Positions 2,163 to 44,484 of a stretch of 64,000 nucleotides of DNA are shown piece by piece; the first letter of the stretch is position 1; every line of letters begins with the position of its first letter. Made by a program: the position numbers and the translations under genes. The notes below the pieces were generated by a model that worked only from the letters and a program-made list of their open reading frames with translations, was not told the DNA's origin and made no database searches. Origin of the DNA: Enterobacteria phage GEC-3S. The stretch lies in the sequence record HE978309, one strand, 5' to 3'.

Positions 2163-4025
2163 TTACATGTGCTTAACGCGGTTTACCATCTCGGAGTGTT
2201 TCCCGTGGTTGAATGGACGCAGATCAACAGATCCAAGATATCCACTAACGCGACGGATAACATTCATCTTTTCCAGATTGTCATTGCCGCAATCAGGGCA
2301 AACAAAACCAGACTCGGTCGCTCTCATTTCCTTAGTAGATCCGCATACATGACATACATCAGAAGGAGTATTAACACCGAAGTAGTGCAATTTATCCATT
2401 GCATAGTCTACTACAGTTTCAAGACCTTTCAGGTTGTTTTTCATGTCTGGGAACTCAACATAAGAGATCATGCCCCCGGACGCCAGCCAGTGATAATCTT
2501 TCTCAAAGTCGATTTTCTCAAATGGAGTGACTTTCCGGTCTACGTCAAGGTGGAATGAGTTGGTGTACCAGTCTTTATCGGTAGCACCCTTAACAATACC
2601 AAATTGCTCTCGGTCCAGTCGATTAAATCGATAGCAAAGGCTCTCGGCTGGCGTACCGTAAAGACTAAACCCAAGTCCAGTTTCGTCCTTCCATTTTTCA
2701 GTATAATGACGCAAGATCTTAAGAATATGTTTACCGTATCGCTGCGCAACTTCCGAATCAAACGGATGAACACCAAACAGGACGCTCAATACCTCATGTA
2801 AACCAATATATCCAAGAGAGATACTAGCTCGACCATCTTTCAACACTTCCAAAATTTCATCGTTTTGATGAATACGGAAAAATGCACCTTCGGTATACAG
2901 TACAGGAGCAACATTGGCTTTAGCCCCTTTTAAAGCGTCTACGCGACTCATGAGCGCATCAAAGCAAATAGGCAGACGATTAGCTAGCTCTTGTTCGAAT
3001 AGCTCAATTCTGCGCATTACAGACGCTTTACCAGCACGACGCGCGGCAATAAGGGCAATACGCGGAAGATTCAGAGTAACAACACCTAAGTTATTACGTC
3101 CGTCTAATACTTCTTCGCCTTTCTCATTATGCCACACACCCAGGAAGCTACGACAACCCATCGGGCTAACCGGAACACTAGATCCAGTGATACTACGGTT
3201 ATTCTTTGCAGAGATATAATCAGGGTAAAGACGCTTACTAGAACATTCCAATGCAAGTTGCTTAATGTCGTAGTTCGGATCTTCCGGTTTAAGGTTTAAT
3301 CCTTCTTCTAAGAACATCACCAGCTTAGGAAACACCGGAGTGATACCATCTTTACCTAAACCTTTAGTTCGAACTTTCAGGATCGCTTTCTGAATCAGTT
3401 TTTCTTCCCAGCTAGTACCCATACCAAATGTTAAAGTCACAAAAGGTGTTTGACCGTTGGTGGAGAACAAAGTGTTGATTTCATATTCTAACGCTTGATA
3501 CCCGTCTAGCGTTTCTTTTTCTGTCTTCTCTTGTGCATAGAGAGTATCAGCTTTGATTCCGTAGGTTTCGGCATCAGCAAGGTGTTTATGATATGTTTTC
3601 TCAACATACGGTGCTAACACCTGATCGATGTTTGCAATTGTGGTCCCGCCATATTGATGACTTGCCACCTGTGCGATAATTTGAGCGGTTACAGCACAAG
3701 CAACGCCGATTGATTTCGGACTTTCGATTTGTGCGCTACCCAATTTAAAACCATTCTCTAGCATGTCTTTTAGATTAACAAGACAGCAGTTAGTAAACGG
3801 CATAGCGGGTGCATAATCCATATCATGATAATGAATATCACCGTCTACATGCGCTTTATAGATGTGCTCAGGTAACACGGTTTTAGCAATCTGTTTAGAC
3901 ACAGCGCCAGCAATCAGATCTCGACGTGTCGGGAATGTTCGCGCGTCTTTGTTCGCGTTCTCTTTGCTTACTTCGTTTTCTTTACCCGTTGCGATCTCTG
4001 TAATGTCTTTGATTAGTTTTTCCAT
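2163..4025 (-). CDS. nrdD: anaerobic ribonucleoside-triphosphate reductase NrdD (glycyl radical enzyme)
   Basis: 620 aa; C-terminal glycyl-radical motif RVSGYLG; Zn-ribbon CHVCG...CPDCG; AGGTGA before ATG; no intron interruption. Confidence 0.95.
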   Translation of the reverse strand: MEKLIKDITEIATGKENEVSKENANKDARTFPTRRDLIAGAVSKQIAKTVLPEHIYKAHVDGDIHYHDMDYAPAMPFTNCCLVNLKDMLENGFKLGSAQIESPKSIGVACAVTAQIIAQVASHQYGGTTIANIDQVLAPYVEKTYHKHLADAETYGIKADTLYAQEKTEKETLDGYQALEYEINTLFSTNGQTPFVTLTFGMGTSWEEKLIQKAILKVRTKGLGKDGITPVFPKLVMFLEEGLNLKPEDPNYDIKQLALECSSKRLYPDYISAKNNRSITGSSVPVSPMGCRSFLGVWHNEKGEEVLDGRNNLGVVTLNLPRIALIAARRAGKASVMRRIELFEQELANRLPICFDALMSRVDALKGAKANVAPVLYTEGAFFRIHQNDEILEVLKDGRASISLGYIGLHEVLSVLFGVHPFDSEVAQRYGKHILKILRHYTEKWKDETGLGFSLYGTPAESLCYRFNRLDREQFGIVKGATDKDWYTNSFHLDVDRKVTPFEKIDFEKDYHWLASGGMISYVEFPDMKNNLKGLETVVDYAMDKLHYFGVNTPSDVCHVCGSTKEMRATESGFVCPDCGNDNLEKMNVIRRVSGYLGSVDLRPFNHGKHSEMVNRVKHM

Positions 4026-4595: not shown

Positions 4596-4623
4596 ATTAT
4601 AGCATACTCCCTTCGCATGTCAA
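4596..4623 (-). promoter_or_regulatory. sigma70-type early promoter (TTGACA, 16 bp, TATAAT) with -10 embedded in GGGAGTAT/ATACTCCC inverted repeat
   Basis: hexamers and 8-bp inverted repeat (4590-4611) read directly. Confidence 0.6.
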
Positions 4624-5798
4624 GCACTAACTTTTTTCTTTACTGCTTTCACCTTCTGGCGAATTGCTCGAATCTCTTCGATCTCTTTTTCAGTATCTTT
4701 AACAATTTCTTTGCGATTCTGAATATCTTTATCGAGATTATCATCAAGTTTAGGCAGCATGTCAATCAAGAACTTTTTAAGGTCTTTCAGGTTGCGAATA
4801 ACAGTACCTTCACCCATTACCGCCACGCCTACACCATCCGGCAGATCACCAAACAGTTTAACCAGTTCAGACAGATGATCATGATCTTCTAGTGCTTCTT
4901 CCGGTTCAGATGGCAGTTCAACAAAGTAATAACGTTCATCATTGCTGATCAGGTGATACCAGCAAAGCCCAAAAGATTTAGGAGTATATTCTACACCACC
5001 AACTTCAACTGCGTCAACACTTCCGAAAGAATCTACTTTAGTTACCTTAAATCCATGTTCCAGCGTTTTAATAATTTCAATAACATGACTGGATACGGTT
5101 TCAGTATTAAACCAATGAGGCAAATTATGTGGATTTGGCTTGTATCGTTCGCCTACTTTAAATCTCTGACCACGCTCTTGCATACGGACATATTCAACTC
5201 GCGTGATTTCCGCGAAGTATTCAAATTCGCTACCGTCAAACAAGCAATTCCATTGATCACAAAAACGATCCGCCTTGACGGTTTCACCTTTCGCGGTGAT
5301 CATGGTAGCTGATCCGTGCAATTCTTCTTCAACTAAAAAGCCATATTCTACAAAATCAACAAGTTTCATGGCTTCTTTGTGCTCTGGGTCATGCTCTCCC
5401 CAGAATCGCTTAAATTCTTGCAAACCTTCTGGGGTAAACGAATAACATTTACCTTTTTCAAAGTAAGTCGGCATTGCATCCTCTTTCTTGTTCATCGCTT
5501 CGTATGCCTCTTTTGAGATACGTTTAAAGTATTTGCGCTCATTGTGCATAATCATAGTAGCCCAATAATAAACGATATCCTCAGCGGAATAAACTACATC
5601 TCCAGCTTCAATAGTAATAACATGACCGTTGTCATCTTTTTCTAATACTTTAAAGCCCTTTTCTACGATTTCAGCAACCCGAATATGACCACGGCGCGAA
5701 GCATCGGTCAGAATAATTGAATAGCGAGAAAAGTCTAGAAACTCATCTTTACCACCTTCACGGAATGCATAGTAATGACCTTCAAAGAATTTAGCCAT
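4620..5798 (-). CDS. hypothetical protein, paralog family member with two internal GFKV-type repeats
   Basis: track ORF; shares NGFKVL...ERKYFKRI(S/T)K with the two downstream paralogs; GAGGATTATATTATG leader. Confidence 0.65.
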   Translation of the reverse strand: MAKFFEGHYYAFREGGKDEFLDFSRYSIILTDASRRGHIRVAEIVEKGFKVLEKDDNGHVITIEAGDVVYSAEDIVYYWATMIMHNERKYFKRISKEAYEAMNKKEDAMPTYFEKGKCYSFTPEGLQEFKRFWGEHDPEHKEAMKLVDFVEYGFLVEEELHGSATMITAKGETVKADRFCDQWNCLFDGSEFEYFAEITRVEYVRMQERGQRFKVGERYKPNPHNLPHWFNTETVSSHVIEIIKTLEHGFKVTKVDSFGSVDAVEVGGVEYTPKSFGLCWYHLISNDERYYFVELPSEPEEALEDHDHLSELVKLFGDLPDGVGVAVMGEGTVIRNLKDLKKFLIDMLPKLDDNLDKDIQNRKEIVKDTEKEIEEIRAIRQKVKAVKKKVSA

Positions 5799-5829
5799 AA
5801 TATAATCCTCTCGTTGTTTAGATGGGAGT

Positions 5830-5858
5830 ATCTTACTACTCCCGTTTCATCATGTCAA
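5830..5858 (-). promoter_or_regulatory. sigma70-type early promoter (TTGACA, 17 bp, TAAGAT) with GGGAGTAG/ACTCCC inverted repeat around the -10
   Basis: read directly; near-identical copy at 6740-6768 and 28571-28599. Confidence 0.55.
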
Positions 5859-6421
5859 GCGTTAAATGACTTTTGGATCTCTTTCAGTTCAGCTACTTTA
5901 TAGGCGCTGAATTTAGCGTAGGTATCATGTCGAATAATTTCACTTTCAAGAAAGGTTTCCAGCCGAGATCTATTTTCAATAAGGAACTCTTTCAGGTCTT
6001 CCGCGTTCTTGATAAAGATTTTATTGTCAGTAATGTCATCTTCAATCGCAAAGGAGATAGAGCGAACTTTACCAAACAAGTTAATCAGATCTTCCAGAGA
6101 TTCTTCTTTCTTAACTGGTTTCATTTCTTCAAACTGCTTTTTAGTGATGCGTTTAAAGTATTTGCGCTCGTTTGCAGCAATCAGAACAGATGCACCTTCA
6201 TACCCATGAGTTTCTACCAGATACACACGCCCCATCGCATCAACAGTGAGAACTTTAAAGCCGTTACAAAGCACGTCATACAAGAACTTATTATGTTGCG
6301 GACATCGTTTGATAAATTCTGCGGCTGTTTCTGCACTACGGAAAGTATAGTAACGACCTCGTTCAAAAACAGCATCATTTGAAGACTTAGCCGGATACAC
6401 TTTATACATTTTCTGTACCAT
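5855..6421 (-). CDS. hypothetical protein, paralog family member (one GFKV-type repeat)
   Basis: track ORF; start moved to the ATG behind GAGGATTATATT. Confidence 0.6.
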   Translation of the reverse strand: MVQKMYKVYPAKSSNDAVFERGRYYTFRSAETAAEFIKRCPQHNKFLYDVLCNGFKVLTVDAMGRVYLVETHGYEGASVLIAANERKYFKRITKKQFEEMKPVKKEESLEDLINLFGKVRSISFAIEDDITDNKIFIKNAEDLKEFLIENRSRLETFLESEIIRHDTYAKFSAYKVAELKEIQKSFNA

Positions 6422-6435
6422 AATATAATCCTCTA

Positions 6436-6708
6436 TCATTTCACTAATTGAACAGCACGAAACAGAATGCGGTCACACGGAAGCAGCATAAATTCCCAAC
6501 GCGGATCAAAGTCTTTAGCGGTATATGTTTTCCCATCAACCGAGATTTCACTTACATAACCAATAGGTGACACTTTAAGAACAGTAAATCCATTCTTGAT
6601 TGCTTCGTAGGTATCTTTCAGACCTTCGTAGTCGTCCTCTAAGAAGTCTTTATGTGCTTGCTCAGATTTAAAAACATAGGCCACACCGGATTTAAACATC
6701 TTACGCAT
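6436..6708 (-). CDS. hypothetical protein, short paralog family member
   Basis: track ORF begins with TTG; start moved to ATG behind AAGGAGAATCAACA. Confidence 0.55.
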   Translation of the reverse strand: MRKMFKSGVAYVFKSEQAHKDFLEDDYEGLKDTYEAIKNGFTVLKVSPIGYVSEISVDGKTYTAKDFDPRWEFMLLPCDRILFRAVQLVK

Positions 6709-6739
6709 TGTTGATTCTCCTTCTTGATTAGATGGGAGC

Positions 6740-6768
6740 ATTTTACTACTCCCATTTCTTATTGTCAA
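6740..6768 (-). promoter_or_regulatory. sigma70-type early promoter (TTGACA, 17 bp, TAAAAT) with GGGAG/CTCCC inverted repeat around the -10
   Basis: read directly. Confidence 0.55.
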
Positions 6769-6771
6769 CTA

Positions 6772-7245
6772 CTATCTTAATCTTTGTATGAATTGTTTCT
6801 TATACTTCTTCGTGATTTCTTCTCGTGTATCAGCGTCGCAGTAATCGAAACCTTCTGCGTCCATAATAGCAACCATCTCCGCTCGTGTCAAGCGTGAAAA
6901 TCGTTTTACTTTATCAACAGCATATTGAGGATGTAAATGATTGTTGGTGTAGTCTCCTTTGATGTAATTAACATAGTTTGTAGCCCAAACAACGAAATCA
7001 GCACCTAAAGCACCAACACCAAACCGTTTAAAGTCTCCGGTCAACGATCCTTCTAGGCGGTTGCAACACGAATGAAGCAATCCCCTTACGCGGCCTTGCC
7101 CTTTCCCATCTAGATCGTGGTCGTGGTCAAGATGGTTTTTGCTCATATCCTCAAAAAGTGGCAATTGACAAAGGGGGCAAATGCCCCCCTGTTTTTCGAA
7201 TAGTTCTTGTTTGTACTCTTTAGCACTCTTAGCAGTCAGTAACAT
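6772..7245 (-). CDS. 49: endonuclease VII (Holliday junction resolvase, T4 gp49)
   Basis: N-terminus MLLTAKSAKEYKQ and Cys/His motifs CPLCQ, NHLDHDHD match my recollection of T4 endonuclease VII; 157 aa from the ATG behind GGAGGGTG. Confidence 0.9.
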   Translation of the reverse strand: MLLTAKSAKEYKQELFEKQGGICPLCQLPLFEDMSKNHLDHDHDLDGKGQGRVRGLLHSCCNRLEGSLTGDFKRFGVGALGADFVVWATNYVNYIKGDYTNNHLHPQYAVDKVKRFSRLTRAEMVAIMDAEGFDYCDADTREEITKKYKKQFIQRLR

Positions 7246-7269
7246 AAATTCACCCTCCAAAGAAGGTAT

Positions 7270-7551
7270 TTAACCATTAATCTTGTTTTTGACTACAAAG
7301 GATCGGAACTCATCAAAACCACCGATATAATCACCATCATAGAAAATCTGCGGCATGGTGGCAATAACTTCTACCCCTGCGCGATCCTGAATATCGGCAA
7401 TGATAGAATCAATCTTTACCGGGCGACCGTTTTCGTCCACACCATCATTAACCGGAATGTAGATGTAAGGGATCTTACGCGCTTCACAAAGGCGCTTTGC
7501 ATTCTGGCAATACTTACAGTTGTAACCTTCAAAACCAAAAATTTCTACCAT
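7270..7551 (-). CDS. nrdC: glutaredoxin/thioredoxin-like protein (T4 NrdC-like)
   Basis: CKYC redox motif, TMPQIF and GGFDEF motifs; start moved to ATG behind GAGGT. Confidence 0.8.
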   Translation of the reverse strand: MVEIFGFEGYNCKYCQNAKRLCEARKIPYIYIPVNDGVDENGRPVKIDSIIADIQDRAGVEVIATMPQIFYDGDYIGGFDEFRSFVVKNKING

Positions 7552-7552
7552 G

Positions 7553-8308
7553 TTATACCTCATTCAGTTCTATATCAAGTTCATTTTCAATAATATAGGC
7601 ATTAACTGCCCGTGCCGCATCATCTTCTGTGTCAAATCTTCCTATATACACACCGCGAACTTTAGCACCGTAATTACCTTGTTTTGGTACTTTGTAAACG
7701 TATCTATGACGGGAACTTGCTGCTTTTTGGAGCTTCTTGCCATATTCAGACTTTGCATATTCTATATCATCAATCTCGTTTATACAAGACCTATCACCAA
7801 AATGTTTCAACGCTGCAAGATTATATGCATACGCCGCACCGATCTCGGAGGGAAAATATCCTAAATGTATAGACTTCCCATCCAACATTATTGCACCAGT
7901 CCAATAACCTTTATTCTTATTAAACGACACACCTTTATACTTCGAATATGTTTTGCATTTGGTCTTGCTCATATTCATATTATTTTGTTTGCTTGTCGTC
8001 TCTCTAAGGTTTTCAATGCGGCTATTATAACGATCTCGGTCTTTATGATCTATATACTTAGGACAATGACCATGAAACATATGATAGATAACACGGTGCA
8101 TACGTTCGTATCGCTCGCCAGTCCATACAATACGATACCCATCGGGGGTATCACTTCCAGCTAATCCGTTTATAACACCTTTTCGGTGCGGGTGAATCTT
8201 CCACCTAAGAAAACCATCATCATAATAAAACCGTGAATGATATAAATCATATAAACGTTTATCTTCTGGAGTCTTGTGTATAACCTCATATTTTAACATT
8301 GGTGACAT
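7553..8308 (-). CDS. HNH homing endonuclease with two AP2-type DNA-binding domains (Mob-like)
   Basis: HNH core IDHKDRDRYNSRIENLRETT; AP2-like YKGVSF...GAAYAYN and GAKVRG...EDDAARAVN; paralog of the ORF at 35956-36696. Confidence 0.8.
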   Translation of the reverse strand: MSPMLKYEVIHKTPEDKRLYDLYHSRFYYDDGFLRWKIHPHRKGVINGLAGSDTPDGYRIVWTGERYERMHRVIYHMFHGHCPKYIDHKDRDRYNSRIENLRETTSKQNNMNMSKTKCKTYSKYKGVSFNKNKGYWTGAIMLDGKSIHLGYFPSEIGAAYAYNLAALKHFGDRSCINEIDDIEYAKSEYGKKLQKAASSRHRYVYKVPKQGNYGAKVRGVYIGRFDTEDDAARAVNAYIIENELDIELNEV

Positions 8309-9101
8309 AAACTTCCTTAGTATCGGATTTTTTACCCCCGCTACGATCTAAACAATATGTTTTATCCAGTTCAACAACAGAAACATCATTACGTTCGATA
8401 AAATCAAGCAAATGGTTGTTAACTTTCCCTTTGTGGTGAGTAACATTGCTTAATCCAAACTTAGCACCGCTAGACATTAATGATTCTATCCACATGTAGA
8501 ATTTAATCTCTTCTTCTTCACTCCAGAACTTATTATATTCTGCCGACGTGATCCAATATGGCGGATCAAGGAAAACGAAATCACCTGGCAAGATCTCGAT
8601 CTCGTCATAGCGACCAGACGTAAAACTGATTCGACCGTCTTTGTTTTCTTCCTTAAAATTCAGGACACGCTCTACCGCGTTTTCGTTAAAAGTCCGGCGA
8701 CCAAAATTAGCATTAAATTCTCCCTTTCGGTTATGGCGGTTAATGTTGCTAAAACTGTGCTGAATCAACACAAACAGCGATAGCGGATCTGGATTCTCGT
8801 TATACTTCTTACGGAATGTCATGTAAGCGTCTTTATCTTCGCGAGACAAACCATTTTCGGCAATAATACGCTTGATCGTAGAAACCGGATCAGGACACTC
8901 GTCAATCGCTTTGTACGCGTCAATTAAGCGGTGATCATAGTCATTAGCCAGCACATCACCTTCGACGTACAGAGACACGCTCAAGCCTCCACAGAAGGCA
9001 TCAACAAAGCGGTTATAGCGCTTAGGGAAATACTTACTAACACCTGGCAATAGCTTTTCCTTATTGCCAGTATAGGGAATTAAACCTAATGCTTTCTTCA
9101 T
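8286..9101 (-). CDS. dam: DNA adenine methyltransferase (T4 Dam-like)
   Basis: SAM motif FVDAFCGGLSV and catalytic FLDPPY; resembles T4 Dam as I recall it. Confidence 0.9.
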   Translation of the reverse strand: MKKALGLIPYTGNKEKLLPGVSKYFPKRYNRFVDAFCGGLSVSLYVEGDVLANDYDHRLIDAYKAIDECPDPVSTIKRIIAENGLSREDKDAYMTFRKKYNENPDPLSLFVLIQHSFSNINRHNRKGEFNANFGRRTFNENAVERVLNFKEENKDGRISFTSGRYDEIEILPGDFVFLDPPYWITSAEYNKFWSEEEEIKFYMWIESLMSSGAKFGLSNVTHHKGKVNNHLLDFIERNDVSVVELDKTYCLDRSGGKKSDTKEVYVTNVKI

Positions 9102-9532
9102 TATCCCTTCCTCAAATAAGTTCGCTCAATCTCTACCCGTTCGAAAAAATCTTGCCAGTCGCAAGGAAAATTGCAGTTTCCGAAATGATCCTCTTTGTAA
9201 AGTTCTTTACCGGATGGCAGCTTAATATCTGTTACGCTGTAGTATCCGCAACAATCGCAATCACCATCTGTATATTCTGTTTTGGTAGGAATATCCATCA
9301 TTGCCAGATACAAAGGTACATCGTCTTGCTCAAAGTTCATGTAACCTTCATGGTCGAATGAAACAAAGTTATCATCGCCACCGAAAGGGATATAATGGTC
9401 ATAATCGGTTACAGGTTGACCGTGCAATTCCCATTCTACAATTTTAACATTACCGCTAAACTTGATACCCATAATTTCAACAAGAAAATGAGTATCGTCA
9501 ATGTAAATCTTACTAGGAGTTGGATAACCCAT
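9101..9532 (-). CDS. hypothetical protein
   Basis: track ORF; GAGGATTATATAATG leader. Confidence 0.6.
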   Translation of the reverse strand: MGYPTPSKIYIDDTHFLVEIMGIKFSGNVKIVEWELHGQPVTDYDHYIPFGGDDNFVSFDHEGYMNFEQDDVPLYLAMMDIPTKTEYTDGDCDCCGYYSVTDIKLPSGKELYKEDHFGNCNFPCDWQDFFERVEIERTYLRKG

Positions 9533-9542
9533 TATATAATCC

Positions 9543-9839
9543 TCATATCTCAGAGAATAGAATCTCTGTTAGCTTCACTGACTGCTCTCTGAATGTTAGC
9601 GTATACTCGAAAGGAAAGTCAACACCCAACTTCAAAAGAGAATAGCCTACCGCCTCTTTATGCTTATCGGTTAGGGCGATCCTAACCAATTCCCGTTGAA
9701 TCTCTTTAGGCGGTGAATGGATAGTAACACGGGTATCATGTAATGTCCAGTCACCATTTCGAATTAAGATTAACGGTTTATCATCATTGAAGATCACCGA
9801 CCCCTTTCCGGTCGGTGAGTGTTTTATACTAATCATCAA
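9543..9839 (-). CDS. hypothetical protein
   Basis: track ORF on the coding strand; start overlaps the upstream gene. Confidence 0.5.
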   Translation of the reverse strand: MMISIKHSPTGKGSVIFNDDKPLILIRNGDWTLHDTRVTIHSPPKEIQRELVRIALTDKHKEAVGYSLLKLGVDFPFEYTLTFREQSVKLTEILFSEI

Positions 9840-10050
9840 ATTCTAAGAAATATTCTGGAACGATATAACCGTTAAAGTCATTGCACTTATAAAAATGTGG
9901 TGCATTTAATGCTGGATGAGCATTAGTAAAGAGTTTACCCTCTAGAAACAGAATGTAATTAATCGGTCTAATACCGACAGAATCAGGGTCTAAACCTTTT
10001 TCTTTCAGTTCAGCCAGCGTTAAAACTCGTCCAGATCTTAACTTAGCCAT
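9829..10050 (-). CDS. hypothetical protein
   Basis: track ORF; GGGGGT before ATG. Confidence 0.55.
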   Translation of the reverse strand: MAKLRSGRVLTLAELKEKGLDPDSVGIRPINYILFLEGKLFTNAHPALNAPHFYKCNDFNGYIVPEYFLEFDD

Positions 10051-10336
10051 GATTTACCCCCAATTCATCAAGATTATGTCGCAGCATTTCAGAGTATTTT
10101 TCTACTTCCTTAATCTTAGTGTGGATCTCCACGATCTCATCCACACTATCAGAAATTTTAATGGCATTCGCGAGCGTGCTTTTACCCGCTTTCACAGTCT
10201 CTTTCATTTCAACCAACATGTCCGCGTGTTTCAATAGTAATTCTTCACGTCGAACATAAGCGGCGGTCAAAGCCTCATCAGCGATTTCTAAAGCATTTTC
10301 AGCGACACCAACAACCATTTTACGAGTAGACAGCAT
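10043..10336 (-). CDS. hypothetical protein (predicted coiled coil)
   Basis: track ORF; GAGGTG before ATG. Confidence 0.55.
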   Translation of the reverse strand: MLSTRKMVVGVAENALEIADEALTAAYVRREELLLKHADMLVEMKETVKAGKSTLANAIKISDSVDEIVEIHTKIKEVEKYSEMLRHNLDELGVNHG

Positions 10337-10350
10337 AAATTCACCTCACA

Positions 10351-10659
10351 TTATTTCACGTTAACGCCGTCATCAATCCAGCCGACGCTATTTGGTTTAA
10401 CAGTTTTACCATAGGATGCATACTTAATCAAGCATGGTTTAACATCATTATCAAATCTTCCTAAACGTACTCCCAAATCAGGAATATCCATGTATGCGGC
10501 TTTATATCCCCATGTGCCATATTCAGAATCAATCTCAACCGGACGGCCTTTAAAAGCATACACTACACCGTGACGGTCAACGATAACATAGCAATAGCCA
10601 GCCGGAAGATACACCGTTTCTCCGTAAACTTTAACTGGAGTAGCAGAAGAGATAAACAT
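10351..10659 (-). CDS. hypothetical protein
   Basis: track ORF; GAGGATTATATTATG leader; promoter upstream. Confidence 0.6.
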   Translation of the reverse strand: MFISSATPVKVYGETVYLPAGYCYVIVDRHGVVYAFKGRPVEIDSEYGTWGYKAAYMDIPDLGVRLGRFDNDVKPCLIKYASYGKTVKPNSVGWIDDGVNVK

Positions 10660-10693
10660 AATATAATCCTCACATCGTTCATTTGATGCGGTT

Positions 10694-10722
10694 ATTATAG
10701 GATAACCGCATTTTCATGTCAA
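10694..10722 (-). promoter_or_regulatory. sigma70-type early promoter (TTGACA, 17 bp, TATAAT) with -10 inside GCGGTTAT/ATAACCGC inverted repeat
   Basis: read directly. Confidence 0.6.
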
Positions 10723-10729
10723 CAGTTTT

Positions 10730-11038
10730 TTAAAAATCTTCTTCCGGTTTATATCGACCGTCATCGACTGGTTTTGGACTGAATCCTTTATGCGTGCGCG
10801 GCTTCGCTTCCGGTTTCCCCGCGATCGACAGTCCAAGCCATTTAAGAAGTTTGTATGAGTAAGCGATGATCACAACTACCCACGTTAAAGGCCATACAAT
10901 AGAACAAATGGCATATGCTCCGGTATCGACCTCTTTGGTGTCCTTGTCGAATCTGGCATACAAGCAAATTATAAGATAGGTGATCATTGCACCAGTAGGC
11001 CAAATATAAAGCACATTAACAATATCTTGTGTTGTCAC
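10730..11038 (-). CDS. small membrane protein (GTG start)
   Basis: AAGGAGG 6 nt before GTG at 11036-11038; hydrophobic segments; the track ORF extends further upstream into the preceding gene. Confidence 0.5.
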   Translation of the reverse strand: MTTQDIVNVLYIWPTGAMITYLIICLYARFDKDTKEVDTGAYAICSIVWPLTWVVVIIAYSYKLLKWLGLSIAGKPEAKPRTHKGFSPKPVDDGRYKPEEDF

Positions 11039-33514: not shown

Positions 33515-35314
33515 ATGCTAATGTTTAATAACTCCGTTAAATGGTTTACCGGAATTGTAGAAAACAGGGAAGACCCATTAATGTTGGGGCGTGTTCAGGT
33601 TAGGATTCATGGTATACATCCCTCGCTATCCGCACACGGTGACATTCAAGGTCTTCCAACCGAAGATCTATTATGGATTACGCCAGTACAAGATATTACA
33701 AGCGCGGCGATCTCCGGTATAGGTCAAAGCCCTACTGGTATTGTTGAAGGTTCAATGGTATTTGGTTTGGCTTTAGATGAACGTTATTTAAACTGCGTTA
33801 TTCTTGGTACTATTGCCGGACAATATACAGAGAAACCACTCACTACAGAGGGTTTTTGCGACCCTTCTGGTGCATATCCTCGTTATATTGGTAATGATGT
33901 TAATATTCTTGCTCGTGGCGGTATTAACCCAGAAACCGGACAAACAACAAAACCTGATAGTGTCTATATTCGAGATGAAAACACTGGAGTTGCAGTAAAT
34001 CCAGACGACGAGCCATTAGACCAAATTCCGGTTGATGATAATCCTGATTTTACAATAGAAAAAATGCTGCGTGGCGATGAGGGATATCGCGAGAAATGGT
34101 ATCTTGATTCAGAAGGATATCCGACAATAGGCATCGGGCATTTGATCATTTATAAGAAAACCAGCGATCTGGGTATTATCAATAATGAACTTTCTAAGCT
34201 GGTAGGGCGTGAAGTTACAAACGGAAGACTTACCGCCGAAGAAGTTAGTAAAGTATTTGCCGACGATATAGAAAAGACTCGTCGTGATATGCGCAAACAT
34301 CCACGAATTGCACCTGTCTATAATAAATGTAATGCCTCACGTCGTATGGCATTAGAAAATATGGCGTTTCAAATTGGTGTTGGTGGATTGGGTAAATTTA
34401 AGAATAGTCTTGCTGCGATGTTAGCGGAAGAATGGAAACAAGCCTATGATGGATTACGTCAATCGGTATGGGCTAACCAAACTCCAGGACGTTCAAGCCG
34501 TGTTTCTAAAATTATTTTAACTGGTAACTTAGAATCATATGGCGTAATTGCTCCAAAGAAAGAGGAATCGATTTCTGATGATCCGCGAGCACGTTTGAGA
34601 AATGCCCGTATTGCTGCCTATAAGACGCAGAGAGCAGAAGAAGACCCAGAAGCACCGTTTACCCCACAAGACACACGAATCATGTTTAAAGAGCCTAAGA
34701 GTTCGTATTCTGCGAGGTATCCTTATAACCATGTTTACGAGTCAGAGAGCGGTCATATTATCGAGATTGATGATACTCCTTCTCATGAGCGTTATCACCG
34801 CAAACATCCTTCTGGTACATTTGAAGAAACCAGGCCGGACGGAACGAGGGTAGAAAAGATTGAAGGCGATGATTATCTGATCGTTAAACAAGGCCGGAAA
34901 GTAAACGTTAAGGGTAATTTGCAAGTTGTTGTTGAAGGTGACGCGCAAGTTTATTATATGGGTAATGTGATGCAAACCGTTGATGGTAACGTCACGGAAT
35001 TTATTCGTGGTAATGTTAATCAGACCGTTGAGGGTACAGCTAATATGCATGTTGTAGGTGATGTTACCGCTCAGCTTGACGCTAATTTGACGGCTAACGT
35101 CAAGGGTAATGCTGAATTAATGATCGAGGGTAACACTACCGAAACAATTAAAGGTAACTATGATTTAACCGTTGAGGGTAATTTTAATATGACCGTCAAT
35201 GGCACTAAATCAGATCAGGTTAATGGTGACTGGTCCCGTAATTGTGGTGCAAGCGTTAAAGATATTGCATCTGGTACAGTTAAAATTGATGGTAGCCGTA
35301 TTGATCTTGGGTGA
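33515..35314 (+). CDS. 5: baseplate hub and tail lysozyme gp5
   Basis: T4-lysozyme-like core YLDSEGYPTIGIGHL; C-terminal VxGxxxxxx beta-helix repeats; 599 aa. Confidence 0.9.
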   Translation: MLMFNNSVKWFTGIVENREDPLMLGRVQVRIHGIHPSLSAHGDIQGLPTEDLLWITPVQDITSAAISGIGQSPTGIVEGSMVFGLALDERYLNCVILGTIAGQYTEKPLTTEGFCDPSGAYPRYIGNDVNILARGGINPETGQTTKPDSVYIRDENTGVAVNPDDEPLDQIPVDDNPDFTIEKMLRGDEGYREKWYLDSEGYPTIGIGHLIIYKKTSDLGIINNELSKLVGREVTNGRLTAEEVSKVFADDIEKTRRDMRKHPRIAPVYNKCNASRRMALENMAFQIGVGGLGKFKNSLAAMLAEEWKQAYDGLRQSVWANQTPGRSSRVSKIILTGNLESYGVIAPKKEESISDDPRARLRNARIAAYKTQRAEEDPEAPFTPQDTRIMFKEPKSSYSARYPYNHVYESESGHIIEIDDTPSHERYHRKHPSGTFEETRPDGTRVEKIEGDDYLIVKQGRKVNVKGNLQVVVEGDAQVYYMGNVMQTVDGNVTEFIRGNVNQTVEGTANMHVVGDVTAQLDANLTANVKGNAELMIEGNTTETIKGNYDLTVEGNFNMTVNGTKSDQVNGDWSRNCGASVKDIASGTVKIDGSRIDLG

Positions 35315-35322
35315 GGTAACTA

Positions 35323-35889
35323 ATGGTTGAAATTCTTCCGATGAGTTCAAAATTGGAGGATATCAGCGAGCGAGAAATCTTTGAGGTGGTGTTCTCTTAT
35401 AAAGCAACGCCACCGGATGCAAATACCACATACACGATTAAAGAGTTTAAGATCAGCGAGTATCGCCCTAATAAGGGCGTTACCGTTGAAGAAACTAAAA
35501 TATCTGGTGAGTATCTGGATAGTTTTTCGCTTGGCGCGGATTCTCTTAAATATATAACGAAAGATCGAATTAAAAAATCTGCCGGAAGTTTTGATGATTT
35601 ACCAGATCCAACTACCGCAGATCTATATTATTTTAACGCTCCTACACGTCTACAGGAGGTTTATACTTATAAAGTAACCCTAACCTATATCCAATCTGTT
35701 TCAGAGTCTTCTGGGGGGTCTGGTGAAGGAAATAGTGGTGGTTCCAATAGCCGAGAGGGTTCTGGTGAAACTAATCCTCCTCCGGTAGTAACCGAGCACA
35801 CAATAGAGAAAGTTTATACTCAAACCGTTTTTGGAAATTGGGATGTGTGGAGTAAACAGTTAAGAGATTATGTACATAGGGGTGTTTAA
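35323..35889 (+). CDS. hypothetical protein at the T4 5.1 position
   Basis: track ORF; ATG overlaps the gene 5 stop region. Confidence 0.6.
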   Translation: MVEILPMSSKLEDISEREIFEVVFSYKATPPDANTTYTIKEFKISEYRPNKGVTVEETKISGEYLDSFSLGADSLKYITKDRIKKSAGSFDDLPDPTTADLYYFNAPTRLQEVYTYKVTLTYIQSVSESSGGSGEGNSGGSNSREGSGETNPPPVVTEHTIEKVYTQTVFGNWDVWSKQLRDYVHRGV

Positions 35890-35955
35890 TGGCTGGCGGG
35901 TGTCGATGCCCCGCCGTCATAAATAGTTATATAATGATTTAATATGAGGTGTTTT

Positions 35956-36696
35956 ATGATTAAAGTGCATGACGATTTCAAAGAACTTTATAATGTATGC
36001 TCTGAACGTTTTTATTATGATGAAACGAGCGGAACAATTAGACGAAAATATGATTGTAAGAGCAATCATTATAAAGCGGGTGATGTAGTAGGATATAAAA
36101 GAAAACAAAAAAGAACAAATAGTGAAGATGGTGTGTTCTATCTGTTTACTAAGATTGATGGAGTTTCTTATTCAATTCAACAAATTGTCTTCTTGCTTAC
36201 CGAAGGGTATATACCCAATTGCATCGATCATATTAACAGAGACACACTAGATAATCACCGTGAAAATCTTCGTGATGCATCGCGAAGCGGAAATTCTCGC
36301 AATAAATGCAAGGTATATAAAAATGGTTTCGCCTCTTCCGATTACATTGGTGTGTCTAAGCGGGGTTCTGGATTTAGGTGTCGTATTAGAATAGACCATG
36401 TTATTGCATATGATGAAACGTTCGAAAATGAAACATCTGCTGCATATGCATATAACGTAGAATGTATAAAATTAGGTGTCAGTGAGTATACCAACTTTAA
36501 TAAATTTGAAGACGAAGAATCTGTTAGGAAACTTTACGAAAAAGAGAAAGAAAATAAAGAGTTTCAAGAATATTGGAAGGGAACACATAAACAGGGTAAA
36601 AGATGGGGTGCTAAAGTTAAGAGTGTGCGTTTGGGTACATTCGAAACAAGGGAAGAAGCTAGACTAGCTATAATTCGCTACAAAGAGGGGGTTTGA
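35956..36696 (+). CDS. HNH homing endonuclease with AP2-type domains, inserted between 5.1 and 5.4
   Basis: HNH core [20 protein letters not shown]; AP2-like YIGVS...SAAYAYN and GAKVKS...EEARLAI; start taken at second ATG behind GAGGTG; stop overlaps 5.4 start (TGATG). Confidence 0.75.
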
Positions 36697-36989
36697 TGGC
36701 TGGTTTATCATATGACAAAGCAAAAACTACTGGACATGGTAATTACGGTCCGACAATAATTAATGCAACTCAATCTAAGGTATTTGTTGAGGGTATCCCT
36801 GTATTAGTCGAAGGAGACCCAATTACACCACACACAAAAACAACAAAGCCTTATGATACACACGGGGGAACTACGGTCGCCAGTACCCCGAAAGTATTTG
36901 TTACCGGAAAGAAAGCAATTCAAATGGCAGATCGTATTAGCTGTGGCGATACCGTCGCTATGGCATCACCGAAGGTATTCATAAAATGA
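36696..36989 (+). CDS. 5.4: PAAR-repeat baseplate spike tip protein gp5.4
   Basis: 97 aa, as T4 gp5.4; position before gene 6; track ORF begins one codon earlier at TTG. Confidence 0.7.
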
Positions 36990-38890
36990 CAAAGCAAAAG
37001 ATTACACAAATTCCTGATATTTTTAATGCTGCTACATTCGATGAAATTAAAAGCGCATTAACAGACTGGATGAGAAACCAGGAAGAATTTAAAGATTTTG
37101 ATTTTAATGGTGCTGGTATTAACGTATTGATGGACTTGCTCGCATATAACACTCTGTATATTCAGCAATTCGCTAACGCCGCGCTATATGAATCTTTTAT
37201 CAGAACGGCAATTAAGCGTAGTTCAGTTGTTCAAGCCGCGCAAGATTTAGGATATTTGCCAGCAAGTAAAACTAGTGCATCGACTACAATTATGTTGCAC
37301 GTAACACATCCGCGAAATCCGGCAAGTATTCGAATCCCACGAGGAACTAAATTTATTGCAAGTGTGGACCGCCAGACGTCTTATCCGTTTGTGACTACAG
37401 AAGACGTTGTGAGCGTTTTAGGTTCAAATGGTTTATATACTCCTATGCTTAAAGTCGCACAAGGTCGTATTGTTCGTACAGAAATGTTATTTGATCCGAA
37501 GAAACAAATTCTGATCCGCGATCCAGATATTGACCGCGCTCAGGTTAAGTTGTGGGTAGACGGTGCTGAATGGAAAGACTGGACGCGAGAAAGTATTGTT
37601 AATGCAACTGGCGCTAGTAATATTTTCTATATGCGTGAAACCGTAGACGGACATACTGAAATTTTCTTTGGTGAGGGTGAATCAACTTTATCTGCTGCTG
37701 GCGGTGCACTGGAAGCAAATTATATTGGTGGACTTAAGCCGTCAACTGGCGCTAATATTGTTATCGAATATATCAGCACTAAAGGCGCGGAAGCAAACGG
37801 ATCTGTCAATTTCACATACGCGGATACCCTTGCATCTATCTCTATTGTTAAAATTATTGAGAATCCGACAAATGATCGTGATTATGTCGGTGCAGATGGT
37901 GGTGGTGACCCTGAATCAATCGAACGTATCCGTGAACTTGCTCCGGTAATGCGTGAATCTCAGCGTCGTTGTGTTACTGCTTCTGACTATGAGGCTTTTG
38001 TGTCTAGCCGTTTTGGTAGTATTGTTCAGGCGGTACAATGTTTCACCGACCGAGAAAAACCGGGTTATGCTTTTGTTGCTGTTAAGCCTAAATCTGGCTT
38101 GCGTTTGACAACTGTTCAAAAAGAAGATATGCGGGATTATCTGGCAAAATATAATCTTGCCCCTATCACGCCGAGCATCATTGACCCTAACTATCTGTAT
38201 ATTAAACAGAATATTAAAGTTTCCTATTCAATCAATGACTTGTCAGAATCAGAGCAGTGGTTGCGCGGTGCGGTTATTGATCAGATTGATGCATATTATA
38301 CCGACGAAGTGGAAATTTTTAACCAGACATTTAGTAAGTCTAAAATGCTTGCTCGTATTGACAAAGCTGATGTATCTGTGATAGGTTCTAGTGCAGAAAT
38401 CGAGATGGTGCGAGAGATCGACAACTTCTATAAAGCGCCTATGGCTGGAATCAAGTTTTTAAACCAGTATAAGAGCGGAATCAAGTCTAGTTCATTCAAC
38501 TTCGAAAAGGACGACAAGCAATATCCGATCCATTATGTAAGTACAGAAATGAACAAAGAATCCGGTTTAGCTAAATTGCTGGTTGGACCTTTCCCTGTTG
38601 ATTCTACAATCGCTTTACCGCACTATTCCGGCACTGATTTTGATAAAGAGGTTATTGACGGTGCGGACCTATACTTTGAGGTTGGAGAGGTTCAGCATTA
38701 TGACGACCTTATTTCATGGGATCTGGGTAAACTGAATATCAATAGCGATCGCTTTACTGGTTCATATATTGAGTTGACAGCTAAACCGATTGCTGATAAC
38801 ATCTTTACTAAAGACGGTTCTTTGATCGTGTTTGAAAACGATCTCCGTCCTCAGTACACAACTATTAGTCTGGAGGCAATTGCTCAATGA
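36986..38890 (+). CDS. 6: baseplate wedge protein gp6
   Basis: 634 aa; position and size as T4 gp6; ATGA overlaps with both neighbours. Confidence 0.85.
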
Positions 38891-43328: not shown

Positions 43329-43645
43329 ATATTAAACTGCATTATACAATGGGTAAACCAAAACATCCAATGCATAAAGTGTTTTGGGGCTTACATCTTC
43401 AAGAAAAATGGCATGATAACTATTGGTTTTGTGACCATGATAAGAAGTGGCATTCTCAAGATGAAGTTAATGCGATGATGGAACAGGGTATAAAATTTAA
43501 TTACTCTAATTATGACCATAGCATTACTTGTATTCGAAAATTGAAACGGTTTATTCGAAAGAATCCGCAATTTAAAAACTTTGTGTTCTTTATGTCTCAT
43601 GTTTATTTGGGGCATAGCGTTACAGTAACAGCAAAGGTTAAATAA
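43316..43645 (+). CDS. hypothetical His/Trp-rich protein (cassette gene 2, 109 aa)
   Basis: track ORF; overlaps both neighbours (translational coupling). Confidence 0.6.
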   Translation: MARVNIKLHYTMGKPKHPMHKVFWGLHLQEKWHDNYWFCDHDKKWHSQDEVNAMMEQGIKFNYSNYDHSITCIRKLKRFIRKNPQFKNFVFFMSHVYLGHSVTVTAKVK

Positions 43646-44484
43646 TGGCACGACTTTCTAAACAAGAACAAAAATTACACGATCTGGCGATGGAGCTAAT
43701 CAATTCAGATCGCCCATTGACCTATGAAGAAAAAGAATTTTGCTATAATAACTATCAGGGCGATGGTCTAGGCGGTTCAGGTGCATTCTTTACCCCAGAA
43801 GGGCTTGCATGGGATTTTACCATCGATGCACATTGCACAGGAAAAGTATTAGATCTTTGTGCTGGGATCGGTCGCTTATCTTTTTGTATGTTACATCGTT
43901 GTAAGCCAGAAAAGATCGTATGCATCGAACTCAATCCAGAATTTGCGCGGATTGGCAAGAGACTATTACCGGAGGCAGAATGGATCACCAGCGATGTATT
44001 CGAATTTGAGTCAAACGAAAAATTCGATGTGGTGATCAGCAATCCACCTTTCGGGAAAATCAATACAACCGACACAAAGGATGTATTTGAGTACACTGGC
44101 GGCGAATTTGAATTTAAGGTTATGACATTAGGCCAGAAGTTTGCCGATGTAGGTTATTTTATTGTTCCTACTGGTTCTGCTGGTTTTGCCTATTCTGGTA
44201 GACCTTATTATGACGGGACCATGAAGTCTAATAAATATCTAAAATGGAGCAAACAAACTGGTTTGGTGACTTATGCCGGATGTGGGATCGATACATCAAT
44301 CTATCGCGATGAATGGCATAGTACCAACGTTTTAACAGAAGTGGTTGAGGTTCGGTATTACGAGAAAGAAGCCGTAGAAGCGCCTAAATCGCGTCCTAAC
44401 GAACAAATAGAAGAAAGTAAGGAGATTACCTTACCGAAACAGGAAAGCGAGTCTGGGACGCTCTCAGATTTGTTTGACATTTAA
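43645..44484 (+). CDS. SAM-dependent methyltransferase (N6-adenine or N4-cytosine-type NPPF motif; target unknown)
   Basis: motif I VLDLCAGIGRL then motif IV VISNPPFG about 45 aa later; TAATG overlap with the upstream gene. Confidence 0.7.
   Translation: MARLSKQEQKLHDLAMELINSDRPLTYEEKEFCYNNYQGDGLGGSGAFFTPEGLAWDFTIDAHCTGKVLDLCAGIGRLSFCMLHRCKPEKIVCIELNPEFARIGKRLLPEAEWITSDVFEFESNEKFDVVISNPPFGKINTTDTKDVFEYTGGEFEFKVMTLGQKFADVGYFIVPTGSAGFAYSGRPYYDGTMKSNKYLKWSKQTGLVTYAGCGIDTSIYRDEWHSTNVLTEVVEVRYYEKEAVEAPKSRPNEQIEESKEITLPKQESESGTLSDLFDI

Follow-up and report, generated by a model that had tools for sequence, protein, structure and literature searches.

A candidate free-standing HNH-AP2 homing endonuclease gene next to a chimeric dam gene at the dam-nrdC junction of Krischvirus phages

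Genes and junctions at the dam-nrdC locus

The window, by which we mean the whole stretch of 64,000 nucleotides analyzed here, is Krischvirus (RB49-like) phage sequence. All real genes between 6.7 and 9.6 kb lie on its minus strand and, in the order in which they are transcribed, run from an ORF at 9532-9101 through dam, an HNH/AP2 endonuclease gene (HEG), and nrdC to gene 49. By transcription, the endonuclease gene is thus upstream of nrdC and not downstream of it, as a preliminary description of this DNA had stated. The features of this locus, and two further ORFs elsewhere in the window, are as follows.

9532-9101, minus strand: ORF without an assigned function (phrog_8157)
8286-9101, minus strand: dam, encoding a chimeric Dam-family N6-adenine DNA methyltransferase of 271 aa (PF02086, TIGR00571)
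8286-8574, minus strand: apparently foreign block at the 3' end of dam, beginning shortly before the DPPY codons and reaching to the stop codon (fixed differences, linkage)
8312-8318, minus strand: Shine-Dalgarno-like AAGGAAG inside dam codons (alignment and sequence)
7553-8308, minus strand: putative free-standing homing endonuclease gene, 251 aa, HNH_3 plus AP2 (Pfam, phrog_99)
8286-8308, minus strand: overlap of the dam 3' end and the endonuclease start, 23 nt (direct sequence reading)
8278-8288, minus strand: left copy of an imperfect direct repeat, TGAGGTTATAC, comprising dam stop and spacer (alignment, sequence)
7552-7562, minus strand: right copy of the imperfect direct repeat, TGAGGTATAAC (alignment, sequence)
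7270-7551, minus strand: nrdC, glutaredoxin/thioredoxin, 93 aa, the right-hand homology flank (Pfam Glutaredoxin, 9e-6; phrog_22)
6772-7245, minus strand: gene 49, endonuclease VII, a marker of conserved synteny (PF02945, PF09124, RB49 annotation)
43645-44484: second putative methyltransferase, class I SAM, with an NPPF motif (phrog_3820, 1.9e-116)
35944-36696: another HNH-AP2-type ORF (30% identity to the 251-aa endonuclease)

The endonuclease ATG (8308-8306) lies within dam, whose stop codon occupies 8288-8286, so that the overlap, previously put at about 20 nt, is exactly 23 nt; it would be 14 nt in case a second ATG at 8299 is used instead. At the other end of the gene, a single nucleotide separates the endonuclease stop (7555-7553) from the conserved nrdC ATG (7551-7549). 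The dam and endonuclease ORFs are not chance ORFs, since their domain matches lie above curated cutoffs and the endonuclease is 99 to 100% identical at the protein level in six independent phage records.

In phages that lack the endonuclease gene (HEG-less), TGAGGTATAAC consists of the dam stop and the 8-nt spacer, and the spacer carries the nrdC ribosome-binding site. Carriers have TGAGGTATAAC at the right-hand border of the insert, where it provides the last endonuclease codons, the endonuclease stop, and the nrdC ribosome-binding site, and an imperfect copy, TGAGGTTATAC, follows chimeric dam. The left (8288-8278) and right (7562-7552) repeat copies, each 11 nt long, lie 726 nt apart, and the net insertion amounts to 726 nt, with one additional dam codon. 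Within dam codons, an AAGGA Shine-Dalgarno sequence precedes the endonuclease ATG by 5 nt; at this position the HEG-less allele has CAAGAAG and then ATG-TAA. Where the endonuclease starts, noncarriers accordingly have CAAGAAGTTTATGTAA, which lacks a Shine-Dalgarno sequence and runs straight into a stop codon, whereas carriers have TAAGGAAGTTTATGTCA. The reason that dam and the endonuclease gene overlap is thus that the cassette encodes its own translation start within the codons of the foreign dam segment.

No T4-type late promoter (TATAAATA) was found near the endonuclease gene, sigma-70-like matches in its vicinity stayed at background level without any excess, and no significant RNA hairpin was predicted around its ribosome-binding site (z = 0.13). 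Given these negative promoter and RNA-structure scans, an endonuclease-specific promoter and a sequestered ribosome-binding site were both dropped from consideration. Expression of the endonuclease gene probably relies on the dam-nrdC transcript and on the ribosome-binding site in the last dam codons.

The 251-aa protein matches HNH_3 (PF13392) over residues 70 to 111 (50.2 bits against a cutoff of 24.8; 2e-13) and AP2 (PF00847) over residues 122 to 168 (35.6 bits against a cutoff of 33.3; 1.1e-8), and the ORF as a whole matches phrog_99, "HNH endonuclease" (5.6e-56). Residues D87, H88, N100, N109, and N112 are invariant in an alignment with six homologues, and by analogy these D/H/N residues may be the catalytic and metal-binding positions of a beta-beta-alpha motif. 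An AF2 model (mean pLDDT, 76.6), built from a shallow alignment of 7 sequences, consists of an N-terminal domain followed by an HNH core (strand-strand-helix, residues 86 to 115) and two three-strand-plus-helix units at 127 to 173 and 204 to 241, the second of which contains strands 204-206, 213-217, and 220-225 and helix 228-241. The top Foldseek match was the DNA-bound double-AP2 transcription factor WRI1 (7wq5; E value of 5.6e-6 over 151 columns), with single AP2 domains such as that of AtERF1 (1gcc; TMt, 0.72) ranking next, and phmmer likewise matched the endonuclease to WRI1 (7wq5) at 4.8e-10. The second, C-terminal unit (approximately residues 200 to 241) gave a weak AP2 sequence match (14.2 bits; E value of 0.055), and the extension that contains it is absent from shorter relatives of 164 to 184 aa. 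Among homing endonucleases of solved structure, sequence searches detected I-HmuI (PDB 1U3E) alone, with a very weak match (E value of 0.3).

Judged by sequence identity, the endonuclease belongs to an isolated lineage whose next relative is 51% identical. This closest paralogue, which is also a free-standing gene of the HNH-AP2 type, lies between regA and gene 43 on other T4-like contigs, and a search of IMG/VR for close relatives returned none. The window does hold two HNH-AP2-type ORFs, as had been described, with the one at 35944-36696 being the more distant of these relatives at 30% identity.

In a Pfam profile search, Dam matched PF02086 (MethyltransfD12; 6e-30, 105 bits), and it matched the NCBIfam model TIGR00571, "dam", over nearly its full length (residues 6 to 268; 147 bits against a cutoff of 114.85). 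The DPPY motif is intact at aa 179 to 182 of the chimeric protein and is encoded inside the foreign block. GATC-specific N6-adenine methylation is an annotation statement for the Dam proteins of RB49 and T4 only. A second putative methyltransferase, also reported in the preliminary description, is indeed present at 43645-44484; it is a core Krischvirus gene unrelated to the endonuclease insertion.

Distribution of the insertion and divergence of the dam 3' block

A megablast search with positions 6000 to 11000 of the window returned 57 phage records, all of them Krischvirus (RB49-like Straboviridae), at 93 to 97% identity. In all 57, dam, nrdC, and gene 49 are adjacent. The endonuclease gene is absent from 51 records, including those of RB49, JSE, and Phi1, which match the query in two pieces covering 82 to 84% of its length; in RB49, the dam stop is separated by 8 nt from the start of nrdC, and the same 8-nt spacing is found in the HEG-less records. 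The six carriers are Sf20, ELT3, pEJ01, PHB13, KMB43, and phiS, and the gene always occupies the dam|nrdC site. A tblastn search with the endonuclease found at least 99% identity in those six records only, with the next match at 43.6%. Further carriers, with the gene at the same dam|nrdC site, are the window itself and an assembly from a sequencing run (L018). The run behind L018 is a metagenome run, and the endonuclease ORF in it is the same one.

The mobility that had been proposed for this ORF is therefore well founded: in six of the 57 records, in L018, and in the window it sits at one fixed site. Such presence/absence polymorphism at a single site between two complete genes is what is expected of a free-standing HEG. 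An Rfam scan of the region detected no group I intron; its sole match, to a snoRNA, was below threshold and is regarded as chance.

We aligned positions 6700 to 9600 across seven carriers and seven noncarriers (14 to 15 genomes were aligned in detail). Between these two groups of seven, 77 fixed differences fall inside 8574-8286, a block with its left edge at approximately 8574, three codons ahead of DPPY, which comprises the last ~290 nt of dam. Outside the block there are two fixed differences, both at the insertion junction (7621-7562), and in the same comparison of seven with seven there are none upstream of 8575 or downstream of 7562, nrdC included. Identity between carriers and noncarriers within the block is 62 to 77% (~70% DNA identity overall to the common allele), while carriers are 98 to 100% identical to each other. 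In a blastn search with the block, the six HEG-containing records were 98.4 to 99.7% identical to it and the 51 HEG-less records 71 to 76% identical, such that the foreign dam allele and the endonuclease are fully linked in 57 of 57 records.

The chimeric structure is also apparent in the protein, whose residues 1 to 175 are 97.7% identical to RB49 Dam and whose C-terminal part is 76.8% identical. Codons 1 to 175 are native Krischvirus sequence, and the foreign allele begins at about codon 176. Divergence of the block from the common allele reaches a pS of ~0.9 with a pN of ~0.15, compared with a pS of 0.12 to 0.30 in the N-terminal part of the same gene. This synonymous saturation, set against the lower divergence of the N-terminal part, points to a foreign origin of the block and led us to reject a recently mutated copy as its source. 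Recoding, in which the carrier allele would differ more than expected by chance at synonymous sites, was rejected as well: of the 69 positions at which the amino acid is unchanged, 31 have the same codon, compared with 29.5 expected for independently drawn codons. From these sequence comparisons, we read the block as a dam segment of a deeply diverged phage lineage that has been kept functional through purifying selection.

Searches for the donor of the block covered several data sets. A distant blastn search against 50,697 phage records returned Krischvirus only, and a degenerate codon pattern for DFIERNDVSVVELDKT had no match in IMG/VR or JGI metagenomes. Used alone as a protein query, the 96-aa C-terminal part of Dam retrieved one fragment, this query probably being too short for the word index, and a search with full-length Dam found relatives whose C-terminal parts were at most 77% identical.

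A third dam C-terminal allele occurs in another assembly, L019, where it has the same left breakpoint and is not accompanied by an endonuclease gene. This allele encodes DIPY in place of DPPY and becomes RB49-like again ~100 nt before the stop. The common breakpoint comes after ~35 nt in which all genomes compared are identical or almost identical, and its sharing by L019 and the carriers may reflect either a homology anchor or a recurrent break site.

Spread of the cassette and alternative explanations

The 1.0-kb cassette (7553-8574) differs by 0.1 to 1.0% among the eight carriers, whereas their flanks (2.7 to 2.9 kb on each side) differ by 2 to 8%. The nearest relatives of these flanks are often HEG-less: the window groups with TB34 and Cognac, pEJ01 groups with JSE and G2494, and the right flank of PHB13 is nearest to that of HEG-less G2494. 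A nearly identical cassette within diverse flanks suggests recent placement in, or recombination into, several genetic backgrounds. Polymorphism among carriers extends to within ~10 nt of the left boundary and up to the base adjoining the right boundary. We observed no hitchhiking gradient in the flanks, which are as diverse in carriers as in noncarriers up to both boundaries; as a result, co-conversion gradients give no indication of where cleavage would occur. The combination of full linkage with a cassette less diverse than its flanks is probably the signature of intronless homing with co-conversion.

In our favored interpretation, the 251-aa ORF is likely to be a free-standing homing endonuclease gene of the HNH family, with AP2-type domains, residing in the 8-nt dam|nrdC spacer. 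There is good reason to think that the mobile unit would be ~1.0 kb long (8574-7553) and would combine the endonuclease gene with the final ~290 nt of a foreign dam. Endonuclease activity, a target site, and endonuclease-driven spread are what we infer from the sequences. During a mixed infection, the enzyme would cut or nick the HEG-less allele, likely in or beside the 3' third of dam; the break would be resected and repaired from the HEG-containing genome by the phage recombination machinery, and repair would copy the endonuclease gene along with the adjoining dam segment. The diverged dam segment would then make the carrier genome uncuttable, a presumed resistance. At ~70% identity, the dam block may also be too different for internal crossovers, in which case block and gene would travel together.

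With respect to the target, a location inside the common allele of dam is a tentative proposal, somewhat short of an even chance on the sequence data; the target could equally be the dam|nrdC junction, which is split by the insertion. A more far-reaching reading, in which homing endonucleases and their target repeatedly come into conflict in the 3' third of dam, is motivated by the presence of two independent foreign alleles, one linked to the HEG and the other in L019, with the same breakpoint just 5' of the DPPY codons. We consider this reading unlikely. If the cut does fall at or near the DPPY codons, ~290 bp from the HEG, the locus would be a natural record of repeated target replacement, with resistance alleles that outlast loss of the endonuclease and an exchange of methyltransferase catalytic domains driven by a selfish nuclease.

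The preliminary description offered another account of the locus, namely, that dam was moved here by or with a mobile endonuclease. As stated there, dam is located elsewhere in T4, where genes 61 and 56 flank it and ~30 kb separate it from nrdC and gene 49. In the window, the endonuclease gene abuts dam, and both observations would fit such a relocation. However, the synteny comparison found the position of dam to be conserved across the whole group: dam is adjacent to nrdC and gene 49 with or without the endonuclease, 51 of the 57 Krischvirus records being HEG-less. Distant uncultured relatives, with Dam proteins 68 to 75% identical, also keep the dam-nrdC-49 order and have no endonuclease, and the N-terminal two-thirds of dam is ordinary Krischvirus sequence. 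Relocation is thus hardly credible. Since the gene order is kept in HEG-less phages and in distant relatives, the endonuclease arrived at a preexisting dam|nrdC junction; the difference from T4 in the position of dam is a property of the entire RB49 lineage and not of the insertion, and the endonuclease altered the 3' third of dam while leaving dam in its place. It is highly unlikely that the endonuclease and its dam allele were instead ancestral to Krischvirus and deleted in most phages. Imperfect direct repeats of 11 nt, one at each end, could mediate precise deletion, and loss is part of homing endonuclease life cycles, but a deletion would leave the foreign dam allele behind, and none of the 51 HEG-less records has one. 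Moreover, the common allele diverges like the rest of dam while the HEG-linked allele is synonymously saturated, and a cassette diversity of at most 1%, against 2 to 8% in the flanks, speaks for a recent common origin.

Other explanations accept the arrival of the cassette and assign its spread to something other than homing. General homologous recombination alone might spread it, with the HNH protein an inactive passenger or employed in another job, for example, AP2-mediated gene regulation or as a nonspecific nuclease. T-even phages recombine very frequently, sequence data do not separate endonuclease-stimulated from background recombination, and shuffling of flanks around a nonrecombining block would also yield low cassette diversity; elsewhere, AP2 is a transcription factor domain. 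Against these points, the ORF is intact, with its D/H/N residues invariant among homologues, and a sporadic distribution argues against a housekeeping role. The architecture and genomic behavior also match those of characterized free-standing endonucleases (PMC2988022), and we regard a passenger role as unlikely. One might also suppose that the swap of the dam C terminus is itself the selected feature, for instance, for restriction evasion, and that the endonuclease is a hitchhiker. The block does hold the catalytic motifs from DPPY onward and evolves under purifying selection, and the L019 allele shares its left breakpoint without any endonuclease being present. In group-alpha Dam enzymes, however, the target recognition region is N-terminal of DPPY, so specificity should stay unchanged by the swap; in addition, the foreign allele never occurs without the endonuclease among the 57 records and is confined to a minority of them (~10%). 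Selection on the dam swap is accordingly very unlikely as the primary explanation.

Intronless homing with co-conversion of the dam block, our preferred reading, would make this locus of use beyond the phages compared here. For phage genomics, it would be a clean natural case in which a free-standing HEG produces a chimeric gene with sharp mosaic boundaries, and the carrier and HEG-less alleles form an experimentally tractable pair for mapping the target of an HNH-AP2 enzyme.

Relation to characterized free-standing endonucleases

The element is an uncharacterized member of a well-known kind. GenBank already labels the ORF "HNH homing endonuclease," and a literature search found no paper on this particular endonuclease gene. 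Its HNH_3 plus AP2 architecture is the same as that of the HNH-AP2 phage endonucleases in PHROG 99, and a link between AP2 and HNH domains was reportedly noted by Magnani and coworkers in 2004. I-HmuI of Bacillus phage SPO1 is also a homing enzyme of the HNH family, a nicking one, but it is intron encoded and has other DNA-binding modules, whereas the endonuclease at dam is free-standing and has AP2.

In relatives that lack the endonuclease, free-standing endonucleases of T4 cut a neighboring conserved gene, often hundreds of base pairs from their own insertion site (PMC2988022). In T4 seg and mob homing, resection must reach homology past the endonuclease gene, and the gene is co-converted together with the intervening DNA; seven T4 free-standing endonucleases have been described as promoterless cassettes (PMC2988022). 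The closest parallel in layout is segF of T4, which, according to the account of Belle et al. (2002) given in PMC2988022, lies directly downstream of a conserved gene, gene 56. segF starts 11 nt inside gene 56, and the endonuclease gene here starts 23 nt inside dam. As summarized in that source, the two also have in common that they are promoterless, co-oriented with their neighbors, and sporadic among relatives, with co-conversion of the neighboring gene. They differ in that SegF is a GIY-YIG enzyme targeting the dCTPase gene, while the enzyme described here combines HNH with AP2 and its presumed target is dam. Cleavage and marker exclusion by SegF are reported there as experimental results, whereas for the dam-linked endonuclease they are predictions.

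Similarities extend to T4 MobE at nrdA/nrdB (PMC2790892), in which an HNH domain is also fused to a separate DNA-binding region, and to Hef of phage U5, which PMC2988022, citing Sandegren et al. (2005), presents as a free-standing HNH endonuclease of a T-even-type phage. As far as these accounts describe them, MobE and Hef are likewise situated between conserved nucleotide metabolism genes and move by double-strand break repair with co-conversion tracts. In sequence, the likeness noted is confined to the HNH motif: unlike MobE and Hef, the endonuclease at the dam-nrdC junction has an AP2 DNA-binding module, occupies another locus, and would act on another target.

A second HNH-AP2 endonuclease in the baseplate cluster

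Another endonuclease gene of the type found between dam and nrdC (the dam-side endonuclease) lies within the baseplate cluster, with gene 5.1 on one side and gene 5.4, which encodes the PAAR protein, on the other:

35944-36696, plus strand: HNH-AP2-type endonuclease, 250 aa (phrog_99)

The two endonucleases share 30% identity. The surrounding region (35200 to 37200 of the window) was covered to at least 80% in only 5 of 58 Krischvirus records. Most of the records lack the baseplate-cluster gene, and in MIZ5 an HNH endonuclease gene is annotated at the corresponding position. On sequence comparison, this predicted endonuclease, like the dam-side one, is facultative in Krischvirus. Phage pEJ01 carries the dam-side endonuclease and lacks the one in the baseplate cluster, and the two are therefore inherited independently.

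Variation at the 3′ end of dam

Two sequences show further variation within dam:

L019 2807-3628 (Krischvirus-like contig, Logan SRR21291535): dam with a third C-terminal allele
L007 about 3745-3760 (phage phiS; window ~8335-8339): extra G in a G5 run, within the foreign block that forms the last ~290 nt of dam

The L019 contig has no endonuclease, and its dam C-terminal allele differs from both of the others. This third allele shares with the foreign block a breakpoint just 5′ of motif IV, has DIPY in place of DPPY, and becomes RB49-like again over its last ~100 nt. L019 also encodes, two genes upstream of dam, a 195-aa protein with a Mom domain (PF25680); the window has no such gene. In phiS, the additional G shifts the reading frame, and dam is annotated at 256 aa. 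Two readings fit the extra base: a sequencing error in the homopolymer, or a dam product that truly lacks its last ~16 residues.

Genes around gene 49 and a second methyltransferase

Three further loci were annotated:

4620-6768, minus strand: three consecutive ORFs of 392, 194, and 110 aa, goF-like
L020 2475-3758 (Logan SRR8048111): 427-aa ORF at the gene 49 position of a more distant relative
43645-44484, plus strand: putative second methyltransferase, class I SAM-dependent, with an NPPF motif (phrog_3820)

All three ORFs downstream of gene 49 match goF-like PHROGs (phrog_8944, 16115, 622, and 5347), the 392-aa ORF doing so twice, and the locus resembles a small family of goF-type modules repeated in tandem. 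The L020 ORF matches SegE_GIY-YIG plus the endonuclease VII dimerization domain; it may represent a fusion of a GIY-YIG endonuclease with gene 49, an insertion of such an endonuclease into that gene, or a gene-calling artifact. The putative methyltransferase, a core Krischvirus gene also present in RB49, matches phrog_3820, "DNA methyltransferase" (1.9e-116), and has weak similarity to MTS, Eco57I, HemK/PrmC, and RsmC models; its substrate may be DNA, RNA, or protein.

Comparison with T4 segF

The T4 locus considered here is as follows:

L023 1107-2286 (T4 NC_000866 15606-16785): segF and gene 56

The segF gene starts within its known target, gene 56 (PMC2988022), overlapping the 3′ end of that gene by 11 nt. 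In T4, the gene immediately upstream of 56 is dam, so T4, like the window, has a free-standing endonuclease close to dam, in this case one gene away.
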